Of a DNA stretch of 64,000 nt, positions 3,680-36,661 are shown in pieces. Position 1 is the stretch's first letter; each line of letters starts with the position of its first letter. The position numbers and the translations under genes are program-made. The notes under the pieces were generated by a model. It searched no databases, had not been told where the DNA came from, and saw nothing but the letters and a program-made list of their open reading frames with translations. This stretch comes from Minisyncoccota bacterium (lineage in GTDB: Bacteria > Patescibacteriota > Minisyncoccia > JAHIHE01 > JAGLIN01), in the NCBI GenBank assembly GCA_041661265.1, contig JBAZUT010000003.1, positions 79,191 to 143,190 on the forward strand. Direction: 5' to 3'.

Positions 3680-3835
3680 TACTCTTGTCGCTGTTTAAAA
3701 GGAAATATATTGACAACAGAAATTTGACTGAAGATTTCAGCCAAAATTGTGTTGTTAATGATTGTACGTTAACAATTGATTTAATTTGTGATTCAATGAT
3801 TAGCAATTAATAATTGCTAGTTAACCGTTTATTAG

Positions 3836-7040
<3,205 letters not shown>

Positions 7041-7171
7041 ATTTAATAGAGGTTGTATTTTAAAGATGTTTTACATCTTTAGATTACAGCTTTGGTTAAC
7101 TAGTGATTATTGATTGTTGTTTATCACAAATATACATACTTGATATTTTGAAATATCGAGTACAAGAATTC

Positions 7172-29118: not shown

Positions 29119-29319
29119 ATGGCATGCAATAATGATGACTTTGAACCAATGTGCGTTTCGACCGAAGAAAGAGAAGTGATACATGATCTCCGCAATTTGG
29201 AATTCGGAAGGATATCGGTTTTCATTCAGAACGGCGTGATGATTAACAAGGAGATCACAAAAACGATCAAGAACAACAAGCATTCGCATCGGGAAGGATA
29301 TATCCAGGAAAAATATTAA
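29119..29319 (+). CDS. DUF2292 (YezD-like) small protein
   Basis: 66 aa. FGRISVFIQNGVMINKEITKTIK matches the DUF2292 core (GSVxIxxHDGxVVQIxxxEK). Confidence 0.5.
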   Translation: MACNNDDFEPMCVSTEEREVIHDLRNLEFGRISVFIQNGVMINKEITKTIKNNKHSHREGYIQEKY

Positions 29320-29821
29320 AAATTTCGCCTGACAGCAAACTGAGTCCCGAGGTCTCGGGATGACAGACAACTGAGGGCTCGCATAGTCAATCTACTTTTT
29401 TTGAAGTGGTTGGCGGTTGCGGGCCCTTTTTGTAATAACGATCCGCAAGCGACAGATGACAGTATATTAATTAATAATGTTAAGCTGGTTTGAAAATCAA
29501 ACTACCGGCATTTAACATATATAAAGGTCGGAGTTGTTTATTTAAACCCTAAAGGTAATTAATTAACTTTAATTATATATGAGGGTGAAAGGTTTAAATA
29601 AGTAACTTAAAAAACTTTTATCAGTTAAATAAAAAAACTTCTGCCGAAGTTCAAAATATGGATCTTTGTAGATGTAACGCCTTTTTCGAAAGGTTTTACG
29701 AGGAAAGCGAGGCAATCCCGAATTCTCGGGACTGCCAAGCGGTGAAATCCTCGCAATTCATCACTAACATAATATTTATATTTTGTCAATATGTAGGCGG
29801 AAGCTTAAAAGGAAAATTACA

Positions 29822-30943
29822 ATGAAAACGAAAACAATGAAAAAGTTCGTTGCACTCTCGGTCATGTTTGCGATGAGCTTGAGCTTCAGTTCAACCGTAT
29901 TGGCGCAATCAACGATCGGAACCGGCCTAACTGCTGATGTCAGCGGCGGCGCTACTCCTATTGTGAAAGCGAAATGGGAAGCAAATGCGCAGGACAGATA
30001 CACAGATGCAAGCACAGCGGCAGGAGCGCAATTTTTGCCGTCAGGACAATACAATATGCATAAATCAATTGCAATATGCGCAGTTGTAACCGATCCGGAC
30101 GGACTTGCAGACATCGACAATGTGTATGCCGATGTATTCTATCCAAATGTTGCATTAGGTTCCAGCCATGTAGCGCTCCCGAATCAGTCAGGTGATGGCT
30201 GCGGAGCGTTCATGCAGGAAGATCTTTTGGTCAGACTCCCTAAAGCCGATGGCATTGCGCTATTCTGCGACAGGGTGAGGAATAACAACAATAATCTTCC
30301 GACATTCAACACGGCACCGATAGCTTATAGCTATGACGAAATTTGCGGCGCAACAGGAGAATTGGAGAAAGACACGGCTGCCGTTTATTGCGGTGAAAAA
30401 GAGATCTCATATGAGGATCCTTCGGGAGATTATGAGGTTTGGGCGATCGGACAGGATAAGAATGGTTTGCAGGGAAAACTTGTGAATCATTTCACTTATC
30501 TTCCAATGACCGCATTTGAGACTGATTTCAATCAGGTCGCATATGGAAATGTCAGACTGAACACTCACAAGATCATCGCCGGCGACTTGACTTGGGATGT
30601 CTTGAATCAGGGAAGAGCTTCAGTGAGAAACGTCGGAAACACCAGGTTGGTCATGAAGATCTGGCAGAATGATATGGGACTCGGCAAGACTAGCGGACTC
30701 TGGAATGTGAAATATGACGCCAGGGTCGGAAGTGCTTCAACATACGCGGTCTATGATCCGGAAACAACAAACGTATTGGATGATGAATTAGACTTGTCAG
30801 AATTGGACGAAATGGATTTCTCCATCGACATTTCAAAATTCCCTCCGACGCATGTTGGATCGAACTACACCGGAACAATGACATTGAGCGCAGATTCGCT
30901 TCCTCATTTAGTATGCGAGGAGACTCCAGGTCAGGTTCAGTAA
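29822..30943 (+). CDS. secreted protein, paralog A of a tandem pair (signal peptide, conserved Cys pattern)
   Basis: Signal peptide MKTKTMKKFVALSVMFAMSLSFSSTVLA (ORF opens at 29783; ATG at 29822 has an AAAGGAAAA RBS). Collinear with 31080-32354: KWEAN...TDA..AAGAQF.PSG.Y...KSIA.CA.V, DPSGDY, NVGNTRL, LSA...PHL.CE. Confidence 0.6.
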   Translation: MKTKTMKKFVALSVMFAMSLSFSSTVLAQSTIGTGLTADVSGGATPIVKAKWEANAQDRYTDASTAAGAQFLPSGQYNMHKSIAICAVVTDPDGLADIDNVYADVFYPNVALGSSHVALPNQSGDGCGAFMQEDLLVRLPKADGIALFCDRVRNNNNNLPTFNTAPIAYSYDEICGATGELEKDTAAVYCGEKEISYEDPSGDYEVWAIGQDKNGLQGKLVNHFTYLPMTAFETDFNQVAYGNVRLNTHKIIAGDLTWDVLNQGRASVRNVGNTRLVMKIWQNDMGLGKTSGLWNVKYDARVGSASTYAVYDPETTNVLDDELDLSELDEMDFSIDISKFPPTHVGSNYTGTMTLSADSLPHLVCEETPGQVQ

Positions 30944-31079
30944 TACGACTGAAACAATTGAAGTTTAATGTATTGCAGGGGGCGGCGACAAGCCGCCTCC
31001 GGAGAGGCTTGAAGCTAAATTATTTTGTTTTTGGTTTCAGACTTCTCGATAATTTATAATCAATAGAAAGCGAGGTATT

Positions 31080-32354
31080 ATGAAAATTAAACGCGCCGTA
31101 AAGCAAATATTCATAATAAGAAAACTATTGAAAACAGGTTTCAAAGTATCAGCTATTGCGGTGTTTGCATTTATTTCCTGCATTTATACATCCGTAAATG
31201 CCCAAGACCTTGAATTTTTAGGTGTGGCATCTGCTGACATCATTGTGGCAAATAGTGATATTGGCGAAAGCGCCAGCTCGACTTTTATAACCGAAGACAT
31301 CGTCGCAACCAATGATATTTCGGAAAGTGCGAGTTCGACTTTTATAATTCCGCAGGATGATAAGCATATATCAATTGGCCTGGATCCCGACTCTTCAAGT
31401 ATCCAGTCTCCGATCATCATGGCGAAATGGGAAGCGAATTCGGACAGATTTACGGATGCGGATGCGGCTGCCGGAGCTCAGTTTATGCCCTCAGGCCGTT
31501 ATGGGATCAATAAATCCATCGCATTCTGCGCAATTGTGGAAAATTCGGACGCCGCTGGCGCCGTTTATGCGGACGTTTACTATCCCGTAGGCGTGGCTCT
31601 TGGAAGCAGCTATACATCACTTCAGGGCCGATCCGGACTCGGTTGCGGAAAGATCATGCAAGAGCAGGGATTATTAAGGATTAATAAGGAATCAGGCATT
31701 GAACTTTTTTGCAATAAAATTAGGAATACAAATAATAATCTGCCTTCATTTGGAGCCGGATATGATTATGGAATTGCGTGCAACAATGAAGGAAGTTTGA
31801 TGAAAGAGACAGCTGCGGTTTATTGCGGTCTCAGGGACATTTCATATGGAGATCCTTCCGGCGATTATATTGTAAGGACTGTTGCCGATCAACCAAACGG
31901 GACAAGCAGCACTATAGAAGACATGTTCACATATTTTCCCGTTACGGCTTTTGAAACGGATTTTGATTCTATCGACTATGGCAAAGTGAAGCTGAATTCT
32001 AAAAAGGTTATCAGCGGAGATGCCATATTCGACATTACAACGATTAACAAACCGACAGTTCGAAATGTCGGCAACACGAGGCTTACTATGAGAATCGTCG
32101 AAGATGATATAGGACTTGGCAAGACATATGAAGATTGGAATGTGCGGTTTGATGCAAGAGTCGGAAATGTATCGGCATTTACGATCTTTGAACCGAATAC
32201 GCCTACTTTGCTCAATGACTCGCTCGGACTTTTGGATACGGAAAATATCGATTTCTCAGTGAATATATTCAGATTTCCGGAATCAGTCCGGGAAAGACTC
32301 GGAGGATCGATGATGCTGAGCGCAGAAGCCGCGCCACACCTTGCTTGCGAATAA
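31080..32354 (+). CDS. secreted protein, paralog B of tandem pair (contains internal 16-aa tandem repeat)
   Basis: 424 aa with N-terminal TM/signal. Repeat DIGESASSTFITEDIVATNDISESASSTFI at nt about 31262-31350. Same conserved blocks as paralog A. Confidence 0.6.
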   Translation: MKIKRAVKQIFIIRKLLKTGFKVSAIAVFAFISCIYTSVNAQDLEFLGVASADIIVANSDIGESASSTFITEDIVATNDISESASSTFIIPQDDKHISIGLDPDSSSIQSPIIMAKWEANSDRFTDADAAAGAQFMPSGRYGINKSIAFCAIVENSDAAGAVYADVYYPVGVALGSSYTSLQGRSGLGCGKIMQEQGLLRINKESGIELFCNKIRNTNNNLPSFGAGYDYGIACNNEGSLMKETAAVYCGLRDISYGDPSGDYIVRTVADQPNGTSSTIEDMFTYFPVTAFETDFDSIDYGKVKLNSKKVISGDAIFDITTINKPTVRNVGNTRLTMRIVEDDIGLGKTYEDWNVRFDARVGNVSAFTIFEPNTPTLLNDSLGLLDTENIDFSVNIFRFPESVRERLGGSMMLSAEAAPHLACE

Positions 32355-32404
32355 TACGAAATGTCAACGTTCCAGACAGAATACTCTTATAATTAATTAA
32401 ATCT

Positions 32405-33421
32405 ATGTACAAAAAAATGATGATCAGCATGACGAGAATACGATGCTTTCTTGTAGCAGTTTTTGTGGTCGCCGCATTGATACCGATCGAGACTCTTGGG
32501 ATCGGACAAACCACTGACCCTATCGCAATAAAAAATGCGCTGAGAGGAAATGAATACCAGCAGACCATGATCATAGTCAACACTGAAAAAACCGATTCGA
32601 CGATTGCGTTCGCCGCTCATGGAGACATTGATAAATGGGCTACATTCTATAAATTCAACGATTTCAGCACTCAACTGAGCGATGTCGTATTGAAAACGGG
32701 AGAGGTTCGCAATGTCAGCGTAGTATTCAAAATTCCTCAGGACACGCCCAATGGCGAATACAAAGGATTCATCAGTGCAGTCAAGAAAAATGATTCTTCA
32801 AGCTCAAGTGAAGGATCAAGCACTTCCGTTTCACAGGAAATAAACAGGGAGGTCACTATTGATGTAAATGATAATGAAGTTGTATCGTTCGAAGTCTCAG
32901 TCATTCCCAAGACATATGACCTTGTAAAAGGCGAGATGCTTGAGATCAGGCTTGTTTATGATAATAGAGGAAATACGAACATCACTCCTCAAGCCCAGAT
33001 CAAGATAAGGAAAGACGATCAGACCGTATATAATTCGATATATCCTTATCCGGAAAATGAACCGGGTGTGAAACCGGGAGCGGTATATGAAATTCCGGCT
33101 ATCCAGATCCCAACCAATAATTTCGAGAAAGGAAAGTTCCGCGCGGAAATGAATTTTCTTGTTGACGGAAAAATGATATTCGAAAAGAAATTCGGATTTT
33201 CCGTCGACATGCTGGGCGCCGACGACCAGGCCGGACTCGTTCTCGGGGCCAATGATAAAAACCTCATAAAAGGCATCACTGACATCGGCTTGCCTTTATA
33301 TGCGATCTTGGCATTATTCGTCATTGCAGGTATTTCTTTGATCTATAGAAAAAGCAAGCAAATGAAAAAGGTCCAAGTGATTCAAAAAGATATTTCCGAT
33401 GTCGCTGACGTGCAGCAATAA
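32405..33421 (+). CDS. cell-surface beta-rich protein with signal peptide and C-terminal TM anchor
   Basis: 338 aa. N-terminal hydrophobic signal, Ser-rich linker, CARDB/Ig-like stretches, C-terminal LPLYAILALFVIAGISLIYRKSKQ anchor. Confidence 0.5.
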   Translation: MYKKMMISMTRIRCFLVAVFVVAALIPIETLGIGQTTDPIAIKNALRGNEYQQTMIIVNTEKTDSTIAFAAHGDIDKWATFYKFNDFSTQLSDVVLKTGEVRNVSVVFKIPQDTPNGEYKGFISAVKKNDSSSSSEGSSTSVSQEINREVTIDVNDNEVVSFEVSVIPKTYDLVKGEMLEIRLVYDNRGNTNITPQAQIKIRKDDQTVYNSIYPYPENEPGVKPGAVYEIPAIQIPTNNFEKGKFRAEMNFLVDGKMIFEKKFGFSVDMLGADDQAGLVLGANDKNLIKGITDIGLPLYAILALFVIAGISLIYRKSKQMKKVQVIQKDISDVADVQQ

Positions 33422-33475
33422 AGCCAATGTTTTCAAATAGGATGATTAGGGGGGATTAACAATAACCGTAAACGT

Positions 33476-36322
33476 ATGAATGTGACCATGAGCGAGTGTT
33501 TGACGGAAACAAAAAGAATTGCAAAAAAGATCATAAATATAAAAAGAATAAACAGAGCGTTGTCCTTGATAAGCGTAATCGCACTCGTCGTGCAAACCAC
33601 GATTGCGGGAAATATTGCCGGCTCATTTGTTTTTAGTGCAAAACCGGCTTTTGCTGTTTCTGCTGGTAGTTCCGTGAGTAAGTGTGAATGGTGGAGCCAA
33701 GAAGAGATAACGCCTGGAAATTGGGGTTGGGCAAGTAAGATTAATTATGACGTCACCAAAGCATGGTGCGATGGGAAAAGTCTGCCTCCAAATCGTCTTT
33801 CAACGTATACTCCCGCAGCCACCGCGAAAATTTCAGGATATAAATACAAGGACATAATTAATGATGGAATTGACGAGGGGGATACAAAAATTGCGGGATG
33901 GGAAATCGTCCTCTCTGGCAGCAAGTCGGCCACGACATCAACCGATGCGAATGGATATTATGTATTCAGCGGACTTATGCCCGGCAATTACACAGTATCG
34001 GAAGGATCAAATGCCGAAAAAGGAACGTTCGTCCAAACAGTGCCTGCCGGAAGCAGCTATTCGATCGCACTATCGGAAGCAGAAAATAAAACAGGAAATG
34101 ATTTTGCGAATTATTTTCCGAGTTGCGGAAATTCACTGACAGATGTTTTTGATGTTTACAGCGAAGCCTGCGACGATGGGATCCTGAATGGCGTTTACGG
34201 CTACTGCAACAGCGATTGTTCCGGCCAAACTGCAAGCATTTGCGGTAATGGCGCAAAAGAAGGCGATGAACAGTGCGATATTAGCGATGGTGTGGGAGCA
34301 CATCAGTCATGTTCAGATCAATGTTCGATAATAGATCTTCCTTTTTGCGGGGACAGTGTCAAAAATGGAGATGAAGCCTGCGATGGAACAGACGGAGTCG
34401 GCGAGCATCAAGCATGCACGGAAAATTGCACTATCGTCGATCTGGCATTTTGCGGAGACCAGACAAAAAACGGGAATGAGCAGTGCGACGGAGGCGACGG
34501 AACAAGCGAGCATTACAGCTGTACAGCTTCATGCACACTTGAATATATCCCATATTGCGGCGACGAGATCAAGAATAATAATGAAGCTTGCGACACAAAT
34601 GACGGCATAGGAGACCATCAATCTTGCAACAATGAGTGTTCAATCGTGAATATCCCATATTGCGGCGACGAGATCAAGAATAATAATGAAGCTTGCGACA
34701 CAAATGACGGCATTGGAGACCATCAGTCTTGTTCAGAGACATGCTCGATTGTCGAGCTGCCTTACTGCGGTGATGGCGCTAAAAATCAGGAAACTGAGGC
34801 ATGTGATGACGGAAATGCGGCTAACGGCGACGGATGCTCGGCAACTTGCGAGACAGAGATGCCGCAAGGACCTGTTTGCGGCGACAATATCAAAAATGGA
34901 AATGAGCAGTGCGACGGAACGCAGGGCATAGGAGAGCACGAATCGTGCAATAGCCAGTGCGTCATCCAGAACGATCCGTATTGCGGAGATAATATTGTAA
35001 ATGGAACTGAAGGTTGTGACGGAACGGCAGGAGTGGGCGAATATCAGTCTTGTTCCAACGAATGCACCATCACGAATCTGCCATATTGCGGAGATGGAGA
35101 AAAGAACGCAGCGGACCAGTGTGATGACGGAAATGCGGCTAACGGCGACGGATGCTCGGCAACTTGCGAGATCGAGGAAGAAAATAGCAATAATAATGGA
35201 GAATCCGGCAACAACAATACGGGCGGAGGAGGTTCTGCTGCGATCATGCAGTTCAATATTTCGGGCGAATCGCTCAGGTCATCGAATATCCGCGAAGACA
35301 GCGTCACGATCACATGGCTGAGTTCGCATTTCGCATCAAGCCAGGTCATATATTCTCTGGAAGGAGAAAGCCACGATCTGGATCTCAATGATAATTCCGG
35401 CACGCCGCCGAAATACGGCTATGCGCATACCACGGCCGAATTCGACAAAGATCCGAAAGTCACGGGACATTCCGCCACGATCACCGGATTGACGCCTGGT
35501 TCCGTTTATTACTATAGAACCGTTTCGCGCGGATCGTTTGCGGTCAGTGAAGAAAAAAGCTTTACTTTGCCGGATGCTGTGGTCAACAATTCTGATGCGA
35601 ATACTGCTGAAACGGCGGTCGCCAATAATGACGAAGGAGAGGTGAAGGGAATCACGTCAACATCGGAAGGCGATTCTCGCGACTGCAATTACATATCGTC
35701 ATTCATCAGGATCGGCGGGATCAATGATCCCGGCGAAGTGGAGAAAGTTGAAAAATTCCTGAATGATTTTGAAAGTGAAAATCTTTCCGTTGATGGAAAA
35801 TTCGAGCAAGCGGATTCAGATGCGATATCAAGGTTCCAGAAGAAATACACGAGTGATATTCTCGTGCCGTGGAATGGCAACATTCCGACCGGAAACGTAT
35901 TTACCACAACGATGAGCAAGATAAATGAAATATATTGCAAGAAGGACTTGCCCCTGACCGCAATACAGCTTGACGAGATCAGTGCCACGAAGACAAGGCT
36001 TGCGCTCGCTATTGCAAACAGTTCATCTGGAGACACGGAAAGTCCGGCTGCAGACAAAACAGCTCAGGATGAAACCGCCAGTGAATCTGTTTCGAATGAT
36101 GCATCAACGAATAGTGAAAATGGAAATGTGAAAGGCGCGTCTTCGGAAAATACCGAGAACGGAAGCGACGGAAATATCAGTAATGAAACGGCAAAAAACA
36201 ACGAGATCGAAACGAAGGTGGCGGGATATCAGACATATCTGAATTATATTCTGATTTTTGCCATAATTGCATCGGCAATATATGGATATGGCTATTATCG
36301 AAAAGGTAAACGGGAAGAATAA
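33476..36322 (+). CDS. large surface protein: CnaB/carboxypeptidase-regulatory-like domain, about 10 Myxococcus-type cysteine-rich repeats, FN3-like domain, PG-binding-like domain, C-terminal TM anchor
   Basis: 948 aa. DANGYYVFSGLMPGNYTVSE. Repeats of CGDxxKNGNEQCDGxDGxGEHQSCSxxCxI and CGDGAKN..EACDDGNAANGDGCSATCE. SVTITWLSS...YYYRTVS (FN3-like). VDGKFEQADSDAISRFQKKY (PG_binding_1-like). YLNYILIFAIIASAIYGYGYY anchor. Confidence 0.65.
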   Translation: MNVTMSECLTETKRIAKKIINIKRINRALSLISVIALVVQTTIAGNIAGSFVFSAKPAFAVSAGSSVSKCEWWSQEEITPGNWGWASKINYDVTKAWCDGKSLPPNRLSTYTPAATAKISGYKYKDIINDGIDEGDTKIAGWEIVLSGSKSATTSTDANGYYVFSGLMPGNYTVSEGSNAEKGTFVQTVPAGSSYSIALSEAENKTGNDFANYFPSCGNSLTDVFDVYSEACDDGILNGVYGYCNSDCSGQTASICGNGAKEGDEQCDISDGVGAHQSCSDQCSIIDLPFCGDSVKNGDEACDGTDGVGEHQACTENCTIVDLAFCGDQTKNGNEQCDGGDGTSEHYSCTASCTLEYIPYCGDEIKNNNEACDTNDGIGDHQSCNNECSIVNIPYCGDEIKNNNEACDTNDGIGDHQSCSETCSIVELPYCGDGAKNQETEACDDGNAANGDGCSATCETEMPQGPVCGDNIKNGNEQCDGTQGIGEHESCNSQCVIQNDPYCGDNIVNGTEGCDGTAGVGEYQSCSNECTITNLPYCGDGEKNAADQCDDGNAANGDGCSATCEIEEENSNNNGESGNNNTGGGGSAAIMQFNISGESLRSSNIREDSVTITWLSSHFASSQVIYSLEGESHDLDLNDNSGTPPKYGYAHTTAEFDKDPKVTGHSATITGLTPGSVYYYRTVSRGSFAVSEEKSFTLPDAVVNNSDANTAETAVANNDEGEVKGITSTSEGDSRDCNYISSFIRIGGINDPGEVEKVEKFLNDFESENLSVDGKFEQADSDAISRFQKKYTSDILVPWNGNIPTGNVFTTTMSKINEIYCKKDLPLTAIQLDEISATKTRLALAIANSSSGDTESPAADKTAQDETASESVSNDASTNSENGNVKGASSENTENGSDGNISNETAKNNEIETKVAGYQTYLNYILIFAIIASAIYGYGYYRKGKREE
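34548..34733 (+). repeat. near-identical tandem duplication (about 80 nt units, 105-nt period) inside the Cys-rich repeat gene
   Basis: TCCCATATTGCGGCGACGAGATCAAGAATAATAATGAAGCTTGCGACACAAATGACGGCAT(A/T)GGAGACCATCA occurs at 34548 and 34653. A second 50-nt identical pair, GTGATGACGGAAATGCGGCTAACGGCGACGGATGCTCGGCAACTTGCGAG, is at 34803 and 35121. Confidence 0.8.
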
Positions 36323-36661
36323 AACTCCAGAATCTCAACGTCTTTAAGTGGAATAGATGCCTTCAGATGCTATAAATGCTCCGCAGGAGAAGCGGAGTGT
36401 TTATTGTGATGCCAGAACCTGCCTTTCGGACAAGCAGTCGGCATGGTTGAGTTTATTGTGATATTTTGCTTCCGCATAAGAGAACCGTTTAATTCACCGT
36501 GACAGGAAGCGTCTATGGAGTTCAAATTTCAAACAAATATATGATCCGTTCCAACACTCGATTGCCCGGGGAGAAATAACTGTTTTGCTAATTGCTATTT
36601 ATATTATTTGATTTATTTGATATAATTAAAAAATAGCGCAATTTATATTTTAACAACTTTT

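Follow-up and report, generated by a model that had tools for sequence, protein, structure and literature searches.

A conserved cell-surface gene set of Patescibacteria around a secreted protein family with its own 3' RNA element

We analyzed a stretch of 64,000 nucleotides (nt), hereafter called the window, from a Minisyncoccota bacterium (assembly GCA_041661265.1, contig JBAZUT010000003.1, positions 79,191 to 143,190 of the forward strand). The window holds a bacterial rRNA operon and four consecutive genes, here designated A, B, C and D, which are the subject of this work (Table 1). A first-pass annotation had described the four genes as co-directional, encoding exported proteins and belonging to an organism with a reduced genome. 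Their exact coordinates and strand were confirmed, and the source is a metagenome-assembled genome (MAG) of Ca. Paceibacterota, within the Patescibacteria, or candidate phyla radiation (CPR). The intergenic gaps measure 136 nt (A/B), 50 nt (B/C) and 54 nt (C/D). A hydropathy scan revealed a hydrophobic, signal-peptide-like segment at the N-terminus of A, B, C and D, from which all four products are predicted to be exported. Together the four genes form a genuine cell-surface set that is conserved widely, with the unusually conserved secreted product of gene A at its center. A literature search found no paper describing the A family, the A-C pair, the locus or the RNA element that follows A, and no database family describing A, the A-C pair or the RNA element was found in Pfam, NCBIfam, PHROG or Rfam. 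A membrane-tethered surface complex that pairs a conserved carrier domain with variable adhesive passengers is a known kind of system; its components here are not known ones.

Table 1. Features of the window and of related loci (L numbers; positions given with an L number refer to that locus; aa, amino acids; Ig, immunoglobulin; ORF, open reading frame)
Feature	Position	Strand	Description
Gene A	29822-30943	+	373 aa; short form of a previously undescribed secreted family
Gene B	31080-32354	+	424 aa; long paralogue of A
Gene C	32405-33421	+	338 aa; predicted membrane-anchored tandem Ig-like protein
Gene D	33476-36322	+	948 aa; modular surface protein
Two-hairpin RNA element	30978-31047	+	H1 30978-31000, GC-rich; H2 31002-31047
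Carriers of the RNA element	window, L001, L003, L006-L013, L015, L016, L018-L020, L022-L026, L029, L030, L033, L036, L037, L039		3' of short A
Terminator-like hairpin after D	36379-36408	+	CUCCGC-7 nt-GCGGAG, extended stem, then GUGUUUAUUGUG; -16.9 kcal/mol, z -4.6
Small ORF	29119-29319	+	66 aa; DUF2292-like, E 0.0067, below cut-off
Terminator-like structure	29335-29440	+	-50.3 kcal/mol, z -7.2; ends in GGGCCCUUUUU
Distant A-C pair	L042:3372-5725		
Distant A-C pair	L043:8001-10446		
Distant A-C pair	L044:8001-10330		
Distant A-C pair	L045:6531-8867		
Distant A-C pair	L046:8001-11584		
Zn-ribbon ORF	L003:9493-9744		
Zn-ribbon ORF	L007:5864-6112		
Zn-ribbon ORF	L008:1950-2183		
Zn-ribbon ORF	L011:2554-2787		
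Zn-ribbon ORF	L013:7422-7655		
Zn-ribbon ORF	L018:507-743		
Zn-ribbon ORF	L021:1249-1491		
Zn-ribbon ORF	L031:294-527		
Zn-ribbon ORF	L034:7401-7628		
Zn-ribbon ORF	L039:7179-7436		

Protein A, in its 373-aa form starting at the ATG at 29822, is 100% identical to 'MAG: hypothetical protein WC788_03280 [Candidatus Paceibacterota bacterium]'. It is predicted to consist of a Sec-type signal peptide and two beta-sandwich domains with two short helices and six invariant cysteines, without a membrane anchor; the acidic protein (isoelectric point, pI, 4.6) ends in ...HLxCE. An AlphaFold2 (AF2) model based on 39 homologues (predicted local distance difference test, pLDDT, 84.2; predicted template modeling score, pTM, 0.75) inserts the two helices in the first beta-sandwich. 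Foldseek searches of this model against the PDB and BFVD returned generic tandem-Ig proteins only (AgI/II C-domains, RbmA, SdrD, WxLIP), with template modeling (TM) scores of ~0.2. Neither A nor B matched Pfam at E<=1, and A had no match in Pfam, NCBIfam, PHROG or PDB sequences, even with 39 aligned members scanned singly. The pair thus matches no known housekeeping family or any other described one, in agreement with the initial impression that it has no recognizable one. No A homologue was found in the plasmid and phage collections searched.

Conservation within the A family is pronounced. The motifs KWEAN, AAGAQF.PSG, DPSGDY, NVGNTRL and PHL.CE, which had been picked out from A and B at first reading, are invariant or nearly so in 39 family members, as are the six cysteines; all six are present in 192/237 sequences of the Patescibacteria subfamily. 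Analysis of their co-loss gave hints of a C149-C175 pair and possibly of C127-C365, with too few informative sequences to settle the partners. Many polar residues (D, E, N, H, Y, K) are also invariant, and a conserved segment, TGLTxDTSGGAxPIVKAKWE, stands just after the signal peptide. In a set of 5.8 billion proteins, A has 522 relatives (clusters at 90% identity), the best 120 of which are 62-86% identical; those named among the best 120 belong to MAGs of Buchanan-, Staskawicz-, Kuenen-, Pace- and other Patescibacteria. Among 1.84 billion cluster representatives (50% identity), a profile search returned 763 at E<=0.001. In most long members the A domain is C-terminal, behind N-terminal extensions of 100-250 aa, and in a few it is N-terminal or internal (P0147, a 729-aa protein of L045, and P0295). 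Passenger modules found on long members comprise DUF4215, TSP3, NosD, VWA-like and DUF4114 domains, which on sequence grounds suggests that the A domain serves as a carrier.

Protein B has a signal peptide and a variable N-terminal extension of ~60 aa in front of its C-terminal A domain. It is a paralogue of A, as had been proposed, with 50% identity across 336 aa (169/336 residues, E 5e-121). The extension contains a duplicated ..(G/S)ESASSTFI.. motif; the duplicated peptide, ..IGESASSTFITEDIVATNDISESASSTFII.., spans window positions 31215-31300 (B residues ~46-75). B-type paralogues occur in ~40% of loci, and their extensions differ wholly between loci.

In the model of protein C, a signal peptide is followed by two beta-sandwiches (~40-128 and 145-267), and a linker then leads to a transmembrane helix at the C-terminal end and a basic tail. 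The C-terminal anchor suggested earlier corresponds to a second hydrophobic segment (residues 287-316, then the basic tail), and the AF2 model (pLDDT 78.7) shows it as a long helix behind two Ig-like sandwiches and a disordered linker. Fold matches in the PDB (Foldseek) include RbmA (2e-10) and the WxLIP structures 9i25_C (5e-10) and 9i1y, with WxLIP ranking second and fourth; the match to 9i25_C has a low E-value but a TM-score of 0.26-0.34, and stands among 674 chains below 1e-3. Given so many matches, the modeled resemblance is one of fold class, that of generic tandem-Ig proteins, and assigns no family. At the sequence level, profiles gave sub-threshold Ig-like matches only (Cep192_D4, GH123_N_2, WxLIP_PGBD). 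Matches of the N-terminal domain to PapD/ASH-like Ig families are weak and recurrent, and WxLIP_PGBD recurs below threshold in 7/25 C proteins; a C profile searched against PDB sequences found no WxLIP. In many of the C proteins from Patescibacteria, an (I/L)GGGN motif stands just before the transmembrane helix and basic tail (in the C-terminal 40 aa of the C-like proteins of L006, L012, L015, L016, L023, L025, L035 and others), an arrangement that in sequence looks like a tripartite sorting signal. C of the window is without this motif.

For protein D, the first-pass annotation had listed a CnaB-like domain, about ten Cys-rich repeats, an FN3-like domain, a peptidoglycan (PG)-binding module and a C-terminal anchor. 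The first three scored above their cut-offs: SdrD_B (PF17210, CnaB-like) at 35.4 bits vs 29.7, DUF4215 (PF13948) at 41.4 vs 27 and TIGR02232 (myxo_disulf_rpt) at 84.5 vs 20.8 for the repeats, and Pur_ac_phosph_N (PF16656, FN3-like) at 38 vs 30. The PG-binding module did not hold, since PG_binding_1 reached 15.5 bits vs a cut-off of 23 (E 0.02). Ten 35-aa Cys repeats were counted by pattern at residues 217-575. The order in D is signal peptide, SdrD_B, Cys repeats, FN3-like domain, an unassigned region that contains the sub-threshold PG_binding_1 match, a low-complexity stalk, what is probably the C-terminal anchor, and a basic tail. The C-terminus, YLNYILIFAIIASAIYGYGYY followed by RKGKREE, missed a simple hydropathy threshold, and is plausibly a membrane anchor. 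The typical D-like protein of other loci consists of a signal peptide, VWA, SdrD_B, Cys repeats, FN3 and a C-terminal anchor; D of the window and that of L015 are without the N-terminal VWA domain that most relatives have. Neither C nor D has an LPXTG ahead of its C-terminal hydrophobic segment, and a crude motif test (TL[IVSTA]TC) found no plausible sortase in any locus, the sole match being an 82-aa antisense ORF in L017. Within the gene, a 105-nt tandem repeat (window 34495-34725; 2.2 copies, 81% matches) corresponds to near-identical adjacent Cys-rich units at residues ~361-430, and suggests a recent repeat duplication.

In order to follow the locus in relatives, one genome per GTDB species (185,579 species) was scanned, which yielded 36 loci, a count limited by the search pattern, all with titles or context pointing to Patescibacteria. 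Hidden Markov models built from our own alignments were applied to all loci, and recurrent families were sought by all-against-all clustering of neighboring ORFs. The gene order is the same wherever there is sufficient sequence: it starts with a short A (~360 aa), to which up to two long B-type paralogues may be added before C, a protein of 300-350 aa with its transmembrane helix at the C-terminus. A recurs in 36 loci, C in 30, D-like proteins in 25 and a Zn-ribbon protein of 77 aa in 10, and no other families recur. The A, C and D-like genes lie on one strand and in one order across loci, and in named MAGs A and C carry neighboring locus tags. The linkage assumed at first pass therefore extends to relatives, with C after A in 30/36 Patescibacteria loci. 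Between loci, A has a median identity of 65%, C one of 36% and the A domain of B-type paralogues one of 40%, and A identity exceeds C identity in 100% of 197 locus pairs. Some records with a typical Patescibacteria locus are titled 'uncultured Gammaproteobacteria' (third-party annotation, TPA, MAGs: L007, L008, L009, L018, L027, L028, L038, L039), and that of L031 is titled Margulisiibacteriota; these titles are probably placeholder or mis-binned labels.

Directly 3' of A lies an RNA element of two hairpins, H1 and H2. In the window it folds at -39.4 kcal/mol (z -6.6), and H2 reads GGAGAGGCUUGAAGCUAAA...UUUGGUUUCAGACUUCUC. Across loci H1 is GC-rich and variable in sequence, and the longer H2 has the consensus GGAGAGGCUUGAAGCUAA...UUGGCUUUAGACUUCUC. 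In each locus the strongest hairpin immediately follows short A: the best 45-nt fold has a median of -23 kcal/mol behind A, compared with -15.6 behind B and -12 behind C. A covariance model of both hairpins was searched against 33 Patescibacteria loci and the window (522 kb in total), and found one copy per locus, directly 3' of short A, in at least 27 of these 34 sources; it detected 22 seed loci as well as L016, L022, L023, L036 and L037. Nothing comparable was found in the rest of the 522 kb, of which the remaining 63 kb of the window form part. RNAalifold, applied to a MAFFT-based alignment, revealed compensatory changes in 14/16 H2 pairs. In the model-fitted alignment 88.5% of cells were paired vs 72.8% in shuffles and 37-66% in slid controls, and 20/23 pairs were changed on both sides (0/500 shuffles as high); this alignment leans towards the model, and the MAFFT-based result agrees with it. 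Rfam gave no match at gathering scores in the window, and chance-level matches only (E >= 0.8) in 30900-31120. Searching the archaeal and Chloroflexota A-C loci described below with the element model gave no match. Where unrelated genes have been inserted downstream (L003, L010) the element stays with A; it is therefore a part of the A 3' end rather than a leader of the next gene. We conclude that it is a previously undescribed, covarying RNA element, found specifically at the 3' end of A. It probably sets A apart from B-C-D at the RNA level, and could plausibly end or stabilize the A transcript and so raise the A:C:D ratio.

A divergent A subfamily of similar length is without the cysteines. 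One member, P0292, lies on an archaeal contig (locus L042; arch_KAE1 at 503 bits, Bud32 and a PGF-pre-PGF protein), and is followed by a C-like gene whose predicted tail resembles a PGF-CTERM signal (APGFEVIYT...KRRK). A search with P0292 returned 213 relatives, including MAGs named Hadarchaeales, Bathyarchaeia, Dehalococcoidia and Chloroflexota, and in four further loci besides L042 a C-like gene follows the A-like gene. Since the A-C pairing recurs in these loci, A-C is the conserved core, across two domains of life, and this core is not confined to reduced genomes. All lineages with the pair are monoderm or archaeal, with no outer membrane. Archaea lack peptidoglycan, and cell-wall binding is therefore unlikely as a general anchoring principle. 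Beside two archaeal pairs (L043:12752-17026, L045:11370-15333) lie a number of small secreted proteins that have '..AHW(S/T)D..' N-termini and match no Pfam family, and the same two loci encode a large protein with a Peptidase_S26 signal-peptidase domain. In composition these surroundings are reminiscent of TasA/SipW filament loci.

The 1.2 kb upstream of A had been noted as gene-poor with structured GC-rich elements; the structures are real, and the region contains a small ORF, of which the GC-rich structure is best read as the terminator rather than as part of the system. Because the upstream structures are not kept next to A elsewhere, they are probably local and do not belong to the system. 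In other loci nothing like the small ORF stands upstream of A, where the Zn-ribbon protein is often encoded instead. In 10/36 loci this protein (75-85 aa, YIWRCAKCSxHF...EKKCPKCKSLN) is encoded on the strand of A, ~600 nt upstream of it, and it could regulate either the locus or the RNA element; all that the window shows is a degenerate trace (~29658-29813) without the second CxxC. A 16-bp palindrome, TCCCGAnnnnTCGGGA, occurs in two copies (29345-29360 and 29716-29731; 0.14 expected by chance), the second ~90 nt before the A start codon. It was considered as a conserved operator and rejected, as it is found in no other locus, nor elsewhere in the window. A scan of the locus for consensus promoters and terminators did no better than shuffles; the hairpin after D probably marks the end of the transcription unit. 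Elsewhere in the window, the 23S rRNA match (3834-7046) spans 3213 nt vs a model of 2925 positions, and the distance between tRNA-Ala and the 23S rRNA start is ~830 nt, which suggests an insertion in the rRNA operon. Insertions in Patescibacteria rRNA genes are not unusual.

The proposal of an attachment or cell-envelope system of undescribed composition, made in the first-pass annotation, was upheld in its testable parts, attachment itself being an interpretation. The account that we favor, tentatively and with a little less than even confidence, is that the locus encodes a membrane-tethered surface assembly in which C tethers A, A serves as abundant structural subunit, and variable binding modules are displayed by B and D. 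C would keep the A domain on the outside of the cytoplasmic membrane, the contacts being probably of the beta-strand or Ig-Ig type. A would be made in excess because the 3' hairpins end or stabilize its transcript, and would self-associate into a platform or short polymer. B, with its A domain and N-terminal passenger, and D, with VWA, CnaB, Cys-repeat and FN3 domains, would plug variable modules into this conserved base, and the outcome would be an attachment organelle with a constant base and variable tips. Several points weigh against this account. We infer both the A:C and the A:A contacts, a profile-profile comparison of A with C found no relation, and the fold matches of A and C are generic (TM-scores 0.2-0.36). 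A recognizable D directly after C is absent from about a third of loci. At the RNA level no U-tract follows the element, which therefore cannot be called an intrinsic terminator, and a promoter after the element was predicted in 12/27 loci vs 31% in shuffles, which is not statistically supported. The literature search returned no expression or localization data for the family; highly expressed Ig-like secreted proteins have been described in Paceibacteria (Kuroda 2024).

Among the other explanations is an extracellular fiber or matrix with the role of TasA/TapA or the archaeal bundling pili, in which A would form filaments, C would nucleate or anchor them, and D or B would act as tip or side adhesin. 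The strong constraint on A, including the segment right behind the signal peptide, would suit such a subunit, as would the PapD/ASH-like matches of C and the small secreted proteins and S26 signal peptidase beside two archaeal pairs; the distribution over Patescibacteria, Chloroflexota and Archaea also resembles that of TasA homologues (PMC9245690). However, no dedicated signal peptidase gene recurs in Patescibacteria loci, the sortase motif (TLxTC) is absent from them apart from the antisense ORF in L017, and neither sequence nor fold of TasA, AbpA, thread, type V or chaperone-usher pilins was matched among the top PDB matches. The AF2 monomer of A is complete and confident with no evident open groove, which is an argument of little force; AF2 self-complements. 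We regard the fiber as unlikely, while still giving it some weight. A two-component S-layer, with A as a lattice covering the cell and C as its membrane stalk in the manner of SlaA/SlaB, strikes us as less probable again, a long shot that would identify the S-layer seen by cryo-electron microscopy on ultra-small groundwater bacteria. It would account for a secreted, unanchored, acidic and highly constrained A, for the strong hairpin after A if output is high, for the stalk-like, membrane-anchored C and for the restriction of the pair to monoderm or archaeal lineages, and S-layers are reported to be prevalent in Patescibacteria (preprint 10.1101/2024.05.28.596244). Against it, the family looks patchy (522 clusters at 90%, 763 representatives at 50%, and 36 loci in 185,579 GTDB species, limited by the search pattern). 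Mature A is only ~37 kDa with six conserved cysteines, which is atypical of bacterial S-layer proteins. In L042 the tail of the PGF-pre-PGF protein weakly resembles a MEMAR-family S-layer glycoprotein (E 0.009, 14 bits), of the kind known from Methanoculleus, which hints at a different S-layer protein there.

True remote homology to WxL systems, with the A domain as a diverged cell-wall-binding WxL and C as a diverged WxLIP, is very improbable in our judgment. [quoted passage not shown] The logic of our gene set is the same, with a small and a large carrier of one domain beside a two-Ig transmembrane protein, and both the sub-threshold WxLIP_PGBD matches and the high ranks of WxLIP structures for C point in this direction. 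Yet the A domain has ~335 aa, none of the 39 A-family members matched the Pfam WxL domain even at E 0.1, and C reached 16.1 bits to PF06030 (DUF916) vs a cut-off of 27.3, failed to match DUF3324 and retrieved no WxLIP when its profile was run against PDB sequences; the pair is also found in Archaea, which have no peptidoglycan to bind. The remaining explanation is that these are functionally independent secreted proteins that share a neighborhood, A being for instance a binding protein, inhibitor or enzyme acting on a host or on substrates. Many invariant polar residues in A are in keeping with this, A may be transcribed separately, and the A-C interaction is a proposal. However, no catalytic family or fold was detected for A, and the adjacency and order of A and C survive across bacterial phyla into Archaea while all flanking genes differ, which is hard to explain without functional coupling; we consider independence quite unlikely.

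To our knowledge, envelope building and host attachment in the ultra-small, host-dependent Patescibacteria are largely unknown, and beyond type IV pili we know of almost no surface components that have been assigned. The membrane-tethered assembly proposed here makes the locus a concrete, testable candidate, with a secreted protein ~65% identical across distant lineages, a possible tether partner and variable adhesin modules. Likewise, we are aware of very few RNA elements described in Patescibacteria, to which the double hairpin may add a new cis-acting motif. Found in Chloroflexota and Archaea as well, the core pair would establish a new family of surface proteins that crosses domains and is carried by organisms lacking an outer membrane. 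In a bolder form of the proposal, which we think improbable as a whole, A-C would be an ancient, peptidoglycan-independent surface module common to Patescibacteria, Chloroflexota and Archaea. In Patescibacteria, A would then be the subunit of a regular array or of fibers on ultra-small cells, anchored by C and decorated by the host-specific adhesins B and D, its output being set by the dedicated structured RNA and possibly by the upstream Zn-ribbon protein.

The gene set shares individual traits with several known surface systems. As in sortase-assembled pili with VWA/CnaB tip adhesins of the RrgA/SpaC type, D-like proteins join VWA and SdrD_B and end in a hydrophobic segment with a basic tail; unlike those pili, the loci have no LPXTG-like motif and, by the simple TLxTC test, no plausible sortase, D of the window has no VWA, and A and C bear no pilin signatures. 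SlaA (canopy) and SlaB (stalk) form the two-component S-layer of Sulfolobales. There, too, an unanchored outer protein is encoded beside a beta-sandwich protein with a C-terminal membrane anchor, but no homology was found, A is small and Cys-rich, and its family is patchy within its lineages. TapA-SipW-TasA and the archaeal bundling pilus AbpA/AbpB likewise combine a secreted, beta-rich major subunit with a neighboring beta-sandwich protein for anchoring or nucleation, and resemble the present family in their patchy distribution in monoderm bacteria and archaea and in the S26 signal peptidase that adjoins archaeal A-C loci. They differ in that A is a two-domain protein of ~340 aa without a TasA/Peptidase_M73 signature or jelly-roll match, the top 50 PDB fold matches of A include neither TasA nor AbpA, and no SipW recurs in Patescibacteria loci; the filament loci are described in PMC9245690.

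The closest parallel in layout is with the WxL/Csc clusters of Lactobacillales and Bacillales, which also encode surface proteins of monoderms. In both, a short, domain-only protein (here A) is accompanied by a long paralogue (here B, with its N-terminal extension) that carries the domain C-terminally behind variable binding modules, a likeness that is an analogy of layout and not evidence of homology. C, with 338 aa, a signal peptide, two Ig-like domains and a C-terminal transmembrane helix, likewise has the appearance of a WxLIP (DUF916-DUF3324-TM, the last being the transmembrane helix). The differences are that A has no detectable WxL homology and is twice the size of a WxL domain, that C is sub-threshold to DUF916 and has no match to DUF3324, that no small LPXTG protein is present, and that the taxa are Patescibacteria, Chloroflexota and Archaea. 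By this analogy, the locus would work like a WxL cluster but is not one: the layout is alike, and the families appear to be unrelated.

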